A DNA stretch of 64,000 nucleotides from a virus (Duplodnaviria; Caudoviricetes), in IMG/VR virus record IMGVR_UViG_3300042558_004043; one strand, 5' to 3'. The notes below the pieces were generated by a model, which made no database searches, was not told the DNA's origin, and saw only the letters and a list, made by a program, of their open reading frames with translations. Below, piece by piece: positions 1,748-4,467 of the stretch. The position numbers and the translations under genes were made by a program. The first letter of the stretch is position 1; every line of letters starts with the position of its first letter.

Positions 1748-1901
1748 CACATTATAGGTTGATTGGGGAATGATTATACCAATAGTTTGAGAGTGGATAC
1801 CGACTGGTATAATCGGAGTTGGCAGGTATTCACCTGAAGTAATGCCAATCGTAAAAGGGGTTGTCCACTCGACCATCTTCCCCTTACCTAAACTTAATGT
1901 G
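1748..1901 (+). ncRNA. Unidentified structured RNA 2 with predicted pseudoknot
   Basis: CACATTA/TAATGTG, TAGGT/ACCTA and GGGGAA/TTCCCC closing helices. GATTATACCA/TGGTATAATC hairpin whose loop (GAGTGGATACC) complements 1859-1870. Confidence 0.55.
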
Positions 1902-2077
1902 TTGTTCCCTTGAGAAAGGAAAGGAGTAGAGCTTAGTGACACTAGAGTCATCACTACAACACATAGGGTTTCTCACCCTAAAAATTCACAGAGTGGCGCA
2001 GGTTGATACTACTTCGCAAGTAGATTGATACAGAGTAAAAAGAGGTGGGGGAAACCACTCATTAACCCACCCAACAT

Positions 2078-2360: not shown

Positions 2361-2562
2361 TGAGTAAGAGATACTCAGAGTCTTCGAATCAAGACTTAAA
2401 GAATGATTCCGCAGAATGTCTACGGCGCGAGTGGGACATCGTGGGATAAAGGGATAGACACATTCCCTCCCAGTAGTGTTGGATGTTTTTAACGGGTAAG
2501 ACCAGCAGGTTTTTAAGAAATAGAAAACCGATAAATCTACTCACCAATAATCTCAAGGTGGG
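2361..2562 (+). ncRNA. Unidentified structured RNA 3
   Basis: Hairpins TGAGTA/TACTCA, AGTCTT/AAGACT, TGGGA..GGGA/TTCCC TCCCA, GGTTTTT/AGAAAACC and a terminal CTCACC-AATAATCTCAA-GGTGGG. Flanked by tRNA-like elements. Confidence 0.55.
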
Positions 2563-2569
2563 GAAACAT

Positions 2570-2643
2570 AGTCGGATAGCTCAGGTGGTTAGAGTTGCAC
2601 GCTTATACCGTGATGGTCGTGGGTTCAACTCCCACTCCGACTA
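2570..2643 (+). tRNA. tRNA-Ile(TAT)
   Basis: Full cloverleaf: AGTCGGA/TCCGACT, GCTC/GAGT, GCACG-CTTATAC-CGTGA, GTGGG-TTCAACT-CCCAC. CCA is not encoded. Confidence 0.85.
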
Positions 2644-2710
2644 CAACTGAAAAACTATAGTTCATATCTAACTCGCGTTTTGTTCAAGATATTTACTATA
2701 AAACCTAACA

Positions 2711-3342: not shown

Positions 3343-4467
3343 ATGAAAAACCTAATTTTACTTCTCAGTTTATCTTTTTTAACGATAAATTTATTTTCAC
3401 AGTGTGAAAATGATTCCATTAATCCTTATTTTATCAACTTTGAACCTGAAGTTACCATTTCTTGTGATGTTGATTTGAGTGTTGTATTTCCTGTAGCACT
3501 TGATGAGTGTGATGATAGTGTTGAGATTGCTTGGTATGAAGAAGTTACGACCGGTATTTGTGAAAACAATTATGATGTTTTTAGAGTATATCGAGCTTTT
3601 GATAACTTTGGAAATCAATCAGTGGAGAGTCAAATAATTCACGTTGTTGATGAAACTTCGCCACTTTTTGTACCTTTGGTCAATCGTACAGTGGAATGTG
3701 GTGACTCAATTATATTCGATGACCCCCAAGTCACAGACAACTGTAGTGATTTTGTACTAACTTATTATAACATAATTCAAAATGTTGATAGTTGTTCTAC
3801 AATCTATACTAGGGTTTGGGAGGCCGTTGATTTTTGTGGAAATACTTCTATCTCGTCACAAACAATAACATCTATTGATATGACACCGCCGGTTATTACA
3901 GGTCCAATTTATTTGGAGGTTAATGAAGATGATAATATTGATACTTCGTTTGTAACTGTGACAGATAATTGTTCATCAATAAATTTAATTTATAGCGATT
4001 TAGAATATTCAGCAAATAACATTATAAGAAATTATACCGCAACTGACGCTTGTGGTAATGTGTCAACATTTGAACAAATTATTGGAATCAATATTGTTAT
4101 CCCACCTGGTGATGACGATGACGATGAAGATGAGGACGATGAAGATGAGGACGATGAAGATGAGGATGAAGATGAGGACGATGAAGATGAGGACGAAGAT
4201 GAGGACGATGAAGATGAGGATGAAGATGATGAAGATGACGATGATTGTCACAAAGTTGCGATTTGTCATGGAACGGGTAATGGTTCTTATCATACAATTT
4301 ATGTGAATCAAAATGCGGTTCAGGCACACCTAAATCACGGAGATTATCTTGGTCCTTGTACCGAAATGATAATTGATTGGCAAACTATTTTACCAAATAG
4401 TGATTTACAAATGAGAGTTATTAAGGGAAAAGATAATAAGTACAAAAAATTTGTGAGAGTTAGATAA
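3343..4467 (+). CDS. Exported protein with three HYR-like Cys-containing repeats, a 45-residue Asp/Glu tract and a C-terminal ICH..H..HGD..GPC motif
   Basis: Signal peptide MKNLILLLSLSFLTINLFS-Q. Repeats of the form A.D.C...I.R.(W/Y).A.D.CGN.S...Q.I.V.D...P. Confidence 0.75.
   Translation: MKNLILLLSLSFLTINLFSQCENDSINPYFINFEPEVTISCDVDLSVVFPVALDECDDSVEIAWYEEVTTGICENNYDVFRVYRAFDNFGNQSVESQIIHVVDETSPLFVPLVNRTVECGDSIIFDDPQVTDNCSDFVLTYYNIIQNVDSCSTIYTRVWEAVDFCGNTSISSQTITSIDMTPPVITGPIYLEVNEDDNIDTSFVTVTDNCSSINLIYSDLEYSANNIIRNYTATDACGNVSTFEQIIGINIVIPPGDDDDDEDEDDEDEDDEDEDEDEDDEDEDEDEDDEDEDEDDEDDDDCHKVAICHGTGNGSYHTIYVNQNAVQAHLNHGDYLGPCTEMIIDWQTILPNSDLQMRVIKGKDNKYKKFVRVR
4111..4245 (+). repeat. Coding microsatellite (GAT/GAC/GAA/GAG) encoding 45 consecutive D/E residues
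   Basis: Imperfect GATGAAGATGAGGAC units within 3343..4467. Confidence 0.95.

Follow-up and report, generated by a model that had tools for sequence, protein, structure and literature searches.

RNA 3, the segment at 2361-2569 on the forward strand, is one copy of a new, undescribed family of structured RNAs of about 210 nt, and its resemblance to GOLLD, another structured RNA encoded nearby, is, as far as sequence comparison reaches, confined to a loop-and-receptor device. Among bacterial and phage RNAs of unknown function, few are as large as GOLLD and ROOL, whose folds are secured by loop-receptor contacts. The window, that is, the whole 64,000-nt stretch of phage DNA analyzed here, comes from a 108-kb virus record of IMG/VR with an estimated completeness of 37%; thus, the phage genome would be about 300 kb. 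RNA 3 is present in the record as a single copy, in a region (1587-2644) without a credible ORF, where structured segments alternate with tRNA-Lys (2078-2151, in the upstream array), a tRNA-like scaffold (2248-2358) that ends 2 nt before RNA 3, and tRNA-Ile(UAU) (2570-2644, forward strand, identified by ARAGORN and Rfam), which begins 7 nt past the last stem, P8; RNA 3 ends at the base before this tRNA. The conserved 3′ domain of GOLLD is located at 6789-7182 on the forward strand, 17 nt upstream of tRNA-Met(CAU) (7200-7273, forward strand), and its match to RF02032 (321 bits; the gathering threshold is 150 bits) identifies it as a genuine GOLLD RNA.

The sequence-only reading of the window had noted that the last hairpins of the two RNAs hold the same 8-mer, TAATCTCA, at 2548-2555 in RNA 3 and at 7171-7178 in GOLLD, each within about 20 nt upstream of a tRNA. 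Both sets of coordinates proved exact, and the tRNA genes begin 7 nt (tRNA-Ile) and 17 nt (tRNA-Met) after the stems. The last hairpin of RNA 3 is composed of the stem C2540-C2545/G2557-G2562 and an 11-nt loop, AAUAAUCUCAA (2546-2556), and that of GOLLD (P27/L27, 7166-7182, forward strand) is composed of the stem A7166-U7169/G7179-U7182 and the loop GUAAUCUCA (7170-7178). Because the GOLLD hairpin falls within the Rfam match, where the consensus loop is GUAaUCUCA, this loop is a conserved feature of the GOLLD family; the RNA 3 loop AAUAAUCUCAA agrees with the general form of L27, GUA(A/U)UCUCA. As a bare 8-mer, TAATCTCA was not significant, with 8 occurrences against 4.27 expected on both strands of the window, and 9 of 100 shuffled windows reached at least 8 copies.

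RNA 3 had no counterpart in the databases searched. Rfam 15 returned only tRNAs and noise on 1560-2700 at E ≤ 10, with no family for RNA 3, and blastn in distant mode against GenBank phages gave only chance matches of 22-26 nt. Homologs were present in IMG/VR, and the family now comprises 35 distinct sequences on more than 50 contigs (members are named below by locus, with three-digit L numbers). A covariance model of the whole RNA, R1, scored the window copy highest at 268 bits and the 34 other distinct members at 28-262 bits. The window copy has all the features by which the R1-defined family is recognized, namely eight covarying helices with the P2 pseudoknot, a small invariant GGGUAAGACC hairpin, an AUCUC terminal loop (L8), and tRNA or tRNA-like flanks.

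How members were retrieved matters for any statement on the loop. Loci fetched through two neighboring proteins, with the RNA ignored, contained three distinct RNA 3 homologs, in all of which the loop was retained although the stem beneath it had changed (CUCACC/GGUGGG versus CCCCAA/UUGGGG). Our first retrieval pattern, GGGTAAGACC...TAATCTCA, brought in many further members, but it also gave about 15 chance matches in coding DNA and was biased toward the loop; thus, the conclusions on loop conservation rest on later patterns, which followed three loop-independent routes. Route 1, a pattern combining the first hairpin loop (L1) with GGGTAAGACC (also described as using L1 and GGGUAAGACC alone), returned 33 stretches, of which 31 were real; all the real ones carried AUCUCA, and only the dinucleotide preceding it varied (UA, GA, or AU). 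Route 2 used GGGTAAGACC and the 3′ strand of helix P7 and constrained neither L1 nor L8, and route 3 collected matches of a 3′-module model, R2 (76 positions, from GGGUAAGACC through P8), in loci fetched for GOLLD. The only L8 variants came from routes 2 and 3, and the AUCUC core was exact in 32 of the 35 members.

The objection that an 8-mer match can arise by chance and that the loop might not be conserved in homologs is thus answered by the family: the loop core is kept across RNA 3 homologs, including members retrieved without the loop, and because of this conservation the match rises above chance. Furthermore, the exact 9-nt GOLLD consensus loop, GUAAUCUCA, was found in several RNA 3 members (L105, L144, L142, L101, L113, and L107). 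These observations support conservation of the loop for a function in RNA 3 and speak against a chance 8-mer. The loop was also more frequent than expected ahead of tRNAs (43 versus 5), but this excess is not independent of the result, as the loci were chosen for carrying RNA 3.

Family members are nearly always placed between tRNA or tRNA-like genes. On the downstream side, ARAGORN found a tRNA after P8 in 26 of the 35 members, at a distance of 5-10 nt in 25 and 29 nt in one, and its identity varied (Leu, Ile, Met, Ser, Arg, Asp, Gly, and Ala). The other nine members (L092, L116, L133, L094, L119, L109, L243, L194, and L113) have a tRNA-like scaffold at the same spacing of 6-8 nt, for example, AGUCAGGUGGCGGAAUUGGU... 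or AGAGUGGCGCAGGUUGAUAC.... On the upstream side, an ARAGORN tRNA ends before P1 in 15 members (2-4 nt in 13 and 13 nt in two), and in many of the remaining ones P1 is preceded by a scaffold end, ...CUGACUACA.

We set the structure by hand on the subgroup of the window, built R1 (212 positions) from it, and aligned all members with Infernal; RNAalifold on a plain MAFFT alignment had given a poor consensus with misaligned helices. Standard pairs occupy 96.0% of 1435 cells in the 35-sequence alignment (A8), a count flattered for the model helices by the fitting of the alignment to the model structure, while the L1:L8 columns lie outside the model. The corresponding control values were 75% in column shuffles and 36-53% when one partner was slid by 1-3 columns, and compensatory changes on both sides were found in 33 of the 42 pairs; the observed values were unmatched in 500 shuffles. 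The margin over the controls is large despite the fitting, and the pseudoknot pairs described below were already visible on the plain MAFFT alignment. This covariation shows a fold of eight helices, including an H-type pseudoknot.

All elements of this fold are on the forward strand. The first hairpin, P1 (2361-2377, UGAGU/ACUCA), has compensatory changes in four of its five pairs and presents the loop L1, whose GAGAU (2368-2372), the proposed receptor of the terminal loop, varies only by A-to-G changes except in L215/L239 (AAGAC) and L194 (GAGAA). Next comes a hairpin, P2 (2379-2384/2391-2396), with the pseudoknot (2379-2409 as a whole), in which the P2 loop GAAUC (2386-2390) pairs with GAUUC (2405-2409); all five pseudoknot pairs have compensatory changes, one of them occurring as AU in 20, UA in 6, GC in 4, and CG in 3 sequences. 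P4 (2416-2439, AUGUC/GACAU) encloses a variable loop and is compensatory in five of five pairs, with 96.9% of cells paired. P5 (UGGG/CCCA) surrounds an A-rich linker and P6 (GGGA/UCCC) at 2442-2472, with compensatory changes in three of four and four of four pairs, respectively. The small, near-invariant hairpin GGGUAAGACC (2494-2503, GG/CC) is identical in 33 of the 35 members, the exceptions being L194 with GCGGUAAGACGC, a G:C-to-C:G swap, and L243 with GGGGAUGCCC. P7 (2508-2529, GGUUUU/AAAACC, with an A-rich loop) is compensatory in four of six pairs, and 93.3% of its cells pair. It is followed by the linker J7/8 (2530-2539, GAUAAAUCUA), which holds a conserved AUCU, and by the terminal hairpin P8 (2540-2562), which is compensatory in six of six pairs with 98.6% of cells paired and whose L8 core AUCUC lies at 2550-2554.

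The family also varies. The divergent subfamily L107/L113/L168, of which a dedicated search for further members yielded only L168, keeps P1/L1 (GGUA-(A/U)GAGA-UACC), the P5/P6 domain, GGGUAAGACC, P7, and P8/L8, with a different and longer region from P1 to P5; its P1 covaried (GGUA/UACC) around the same L1, and L8 was also unchanged. In L108 (3327-3596), as in L115 and L140, about 55 nt are inserted in the P4 loop and the remainder is intact. L155 (5635-5850) and L150 (3304-3523) look mosaic: their 5′ two-thirds resemble the subgroup of the window and their 3′ third, from about UUGACUAAUUUUAAG on, matches the L008 subgroup, which suggests recombination between members of the family. A pairing of the U-rich stretch 2476-2490 with the 3′ strand of P4 was rejected, as the mosaic member L155 has no complementarity there. 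The part of this stretch just before GGGUAAGACC (2485-2490) could form a three-pair stack with the A-rich P7 loop (2515-2522); six cells changed on both sides in a 26-sequence alignment, in low-complexity sequence, and the two elements may form a second pseudoknot.

We then looked for a partner of L8 within RNA 3. L1 GAGAU is the only other element that is as conserved as AUCUC and complementary to it, and the two pair in 97.7% of cells in the 35 members. All nine A-to-G changes in L1 (9 sequences) face U. In L215 and L239, L1 became AAGAC and L8 became UUGUCUC, so that a U:A pair was replaced by C:G, and in L177 GGAU pairs with AUCC through an event that involves an indel; mismatches occur at the helix end, A.C in L215/L239 and A.A in L194. 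The clear compensatory events thus amount to one (L215/L239, which are close relatives) plus the indel-linked L177, and because most positions never vary, the covariation falls short of proving the L1:L8 helix. It would also give the same signal for pairing within one molecule or between copies. On balance, we lean toward the reading that L8 closes the fold of RNA 3 by pairing with L1, at modest confidence.

An alternative that borrows more from GOLLD is that L1 pairs with J7/8 (AGAU:AUCU) in a long-range helix stacked on P8, and that L8 docks elsewhere, for example, on the L1:J7/8 helix and the invariant GGGUAAGACC hairpin. This arrangement copies GOLLD more closely, with L1:J7/8 corresponding to P23, GGGUAAGA to J24/26 (GGAUAAGA), and L8 to L27. 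Indeed, GGGUAAGA matches the GOLLD GGAUAAGA at seven of eight bases in this window, the two RNAs share an order of elements (a GAGA-type strand, GGRUAAGA, a hairpin, an xUCU strand, and a terminal-loop hairpin), and L144 changed A10 of L1 to G together with a U-to-C change in J7/8. However, L1:J7/8 pairs in only 94.3% of cells, with eight unpaired cells and a single double change; the unpaired cells include A.C in L173 and a mid-helix A.A in L243, and two mismatches in L215/L239, in which L1:L8 is compensated instead. Moreover, R2, which runs from GGGUAAGACC through P8, matched no GOLLD 3′ end, as described below. The common order of elements is a similarity by eye only, and no test supported homology. 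We therefore favor the complementary loop L1 as the predicted partner of L8 and consider pairing of L1 with J7/8 unlikely.

For comparison, we analyzed the contact made by the corresponding loop in GOLLD. A cryo-EM study of the GOLLD RNA env-38 described L27 as an intramolecular hub that pairs with P23 and J24/26 (Kretsch et al. 2025, PMC12286853), and in the window AUCU of L27 (7173-7176) is paired with GGAU of J24/26 (7122-7125). We fetched GOLLD 3′ ends by a pattern for the P26 hairpin, leaving both J24/26 and L27 unconstrained. Among 60 distinct GOLLDs (loci L157-L293), J24/26 GGAU occurred with L27 AAUCUCA in 44 and GGAA occurred with AUUCUCA in 16, with no discordant case. This double change fits the GGAU:AUCU pairing predicted from sequence and the published contact, and few evolutionary events may lie behind it. 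The exact 8-mer common to RNA 3 and GOLLD is one of the two states of GOLLD L27.

With respect to function, the loop had been proposed to be an end-protection, pseudoknot, or docking module. The docking or pseudoknot part agrees with a loop that is conserved, complementary to L1, and changed once in a compensatory manner, and our data support it as the best-fitting reading of the putative module. The end-protection part was dropped: any stable hairpin protects an end, and protection cannot account for the conservation of the loop sequence.

The same reading had suggested that RNA 3 could be a mini-GOLLD relative or a partner RNA, for instance docking on GOLLD through pairing of L1 GAGAU with L27 AUCUC, or being a degenerate miniature. 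The two RNAs are indeed only 4.6 kb apart in the window, and 12 of the 43 records with RNA 3 also hold GOLLD, as do 3 of the 5 that are at least 90% complete. However, the covariance models gave no cross-match in either direction. The Rfam GOLLD model, against which scoring had been proposed, had no match on the RNA 3 region 1560-2700 at E ≤ 10; RNA 3 did not reach the gathering threshold of 150 bits, while the positive control at 6789-7182 scored 321 bits. Conversely, on 60 GOLLD 3′ ends, R1 gave no match at E ≤ 1 and R2 none at E ≤ 10. RNA 3 as modeled in R1 and R2 lacks the GOLLD 3′ architecture, in which P23 encloses P24/P26 and J24/26 and P27 follows, and it has no linker that covaries as J24/26 does: J5/6, which is GGGAUAA in the window, varies freely. 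The best partner of L8 in RNA 3 is L1 GAGAU, a topology unlike that of GOLLD. Two specific correspondences were also tried and rejected: GUGGGAUAAAGGGA of RNA 3 was compared with GOLLD J24/26 plus P26, but its GGG forms part of P5, which covaries, and the linker shows unconstrained variation, and the equation of GGGUAAGACC with GOLLD P22 or J24/26 was unsupported by R2. As for a partnership, no GOLLD match was obtained in two RNA 3-bearing records of at least 90% completeness, one of 89 kb with terminal repeats and the other of 311 kb (estimated completeness of 100% and 93% for the pair), and the loops vary independently in the same genomes. In six genomes GOLLD L27 is UAUUCUCA while RNA 3 L8/L1 stay AUCUC/GAGAU, so that the UUCUC of L27 faces an unaltered GAGAU with no compensation across the two RNAs; in L215/L239, both L8 and L1 of RNA 3 changed while L27 of GOLLD on the same contig stayed GUAAUCUCA. 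RNA 3 is thus most likely not a reduced GOLLD, nor is partnership with GOLLD obligatory for it, and docking on GOLLD or descent as its miniature would be very improbable.

Because L8/L1 and L27/J24/26 change independently, each loop seems to evolve with the receptor in its own RNA, which argues against docking of RNA 3 on GOLLD and also against a shared trans factor. The factor, for example, a protein of the phage or host, the ribosome, or a further RNA, would recognize the loop as a binding site common to both RNAs. The same conserved loop of 8-9 nt at the 3′ ends of two phage RNAs beside tRNAs would suit such a factor, and GOLLD is reported to bind ribosomes in pull-downs (PMC12286853). Yet L27 is engaged within the molecule in the RNA-only cryo-EM structure, its A-to-U change goes together with its own J24/26 without exception in the 60 GOLLDs, and L8 of RNA 3 neither follows the L27 change in the same genomes nor, in L215/L239, is followed by L27 when it changes with its own L1. 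We consider a common trans factor quite unlikely. Coincidence, in which unrelated RNAs would each have set a UCUC loop against a purine receptor (GAGA or GGA), is somewhat less improbable: the window shows no enrichment of the 8-mer, the GOLLD loop itself differs (UAUUCUCA) in 16 of the 60 sampled GOLLDs, no similarity beyond the loop was detected with R1 or R2, and a third motif, described next, uses UUCUCA. On the other hand, several RNA 3 members carry the full GUAAUCUCA in a loop of equal size, the loop belongs to the last hairpin before the 3′ end in both RNAs, and the apparently recombinant L155 and L150 indicate that modules move between the RNAs of the arrays, and we therefore doubt that the identity is accidental. 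For the device common to GOLLD and RNA 3, the sequences would be compatible either with descent by module exchange between array RNAs or with convergence on a simple helix between a pyrimidine loop and a purine partner.

The third motif, family C, is located upstream of RNA 3 in the same operon (1898-1980, forward strand), with P1 GUGUUG/CACAAC, and is directly followed by a tRNA-like scaffold. Its first hairpin loop, UUGAGAAA (1910-1917), is complementary to its terminal loop, UUUCUCA (1969-1975), and UGAGA(A/G) and UUCUCA were kept in the 13 distinct copies found in the fetched loci. No Rfam match was obtained (1560-2700, E ≤ 10), and neither R1 nor R2 detected it. Like RNA 3, family C is immediately followed by a tRNA or tRNA-like scaffold and shows complementarity between its first and last loops; unlike RNA 3, it is only about 85 nt long, has another core (P1 and a variable hairpin), and has neither GGGUAAGACC nor a pseudoknot. 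In both loops of the pair, A and U are exchanged at one position between the two RNAs (UGAGAA:UUCUCA versus GAGAU:AUCUC), in parallel with the two states of GOLLD. Taken together, three RNAs of the window carry (A/U)UCUCA in a terminal loop, opposite a purine receptor located upstream.

From these features, we propose the following mechanism. RNA 3 is carried inside the tRNA gene arrays of large uncultivated phages and, judging from its flanks, would be cut from the array transcript by tRNA-processing enzymes, with RNase P cleavage at the 5′ end of tRNA-Ile presumably producing its 3′ end about 7 nt past the last hairpin. The terminal loop L8 would then act as a tertiary docking element: base pairing of its AUCUC (2550-2554) to the GAGAU of L1 (2368-2372) would give a helix between the two loops that fastens the 5′ and 3′ termini of the RNA to each other. 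L8 would be analogous to L27 of GOLLD, where AUCU pairs with GGAU of J24/26, and to the UGAGAA:UUCUCA arrangement of family C. It is conceivable, if doubtful, that L1 and L8 pair between molecules and that RNA 3 assembles head to tail into RNA-only rings or cages; in that case, such assemblies would be smaller relatives of the nanocages built by GOLLD and ROOL, and their release would go along with that of the phage tRNAs.

Compared with known systems, GOLLD is the closest in design. Phages encode both RNAs within or next to tRNA islands, the last hairpin of each carries GUA(A/U)UCUCA, and in both a conserved loop pairs with a purine-rich element of the same RNA, GGA(U/A) in GOLLD and, as proposed here, GAGAU in RNA 3. 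They differ in that GOLLD exceeds 800 nt while RNA 3 has about 210 nt and no other common helix detectable by covariance models, in that the receptor is an internal linker in GOLLD and a 5′ hairpin loop in our proposal for RNA 3, and in that RNA 3 also occurs without GOLLD. An RNA-only cage of 14 copies is a feature of GOLLD, whereas RNA 3 is known here from sequence alone. ROOL is likewise a large structured RNA of phages and prophages found near tRNA islands and held by kissing loops (PMC12286853). The ROOL model (RF03087) gave no match on 1560-2700 at E ≤ 10, and RNA 3 is about one-third of the size of ROOL with a different fold. In phage T4, species 1 and 2 (rnaC and rnaD) are small stable RNAs of unknown function in the tRNA cluster that are released by tRNA-processing enzymes; their likeness to RNA 3 is one of genomic setting only.

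The loop that is central to folding of the conserved GOLLD domain is thus found again in a phage RNA that is far smaller and evolves separately, and the family C motif of the same operon has it in the swapped version; this recurrence points to a portable loop-receptor device among the structured RNAs of phage tRNA arrays. With RNA 3, a further family is defined among the elements other than tRNAs in these arrays, which are poorly understood as a group. Its length of 210 nt brings chemical probing, mutagenesis, and cryo-EM within reach, which would make RNA 3 a tractable model of folding and possibly of assembly.

Two further features were recorded in this part of the window. A tmRNA (7821-8198, reverse strand; RF00023, 93 bits) is located about 550 nt downstream of the GOLLD/tRNA-Met pair on the opposite strand. 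The ORF at 3343-4467 (forward strand) contains a long run of Asp and Glu codons at 4100-4250, made of GAT/GAA/GAC/GAG repeats, and its predicted protein has a signal-peptide-like start.
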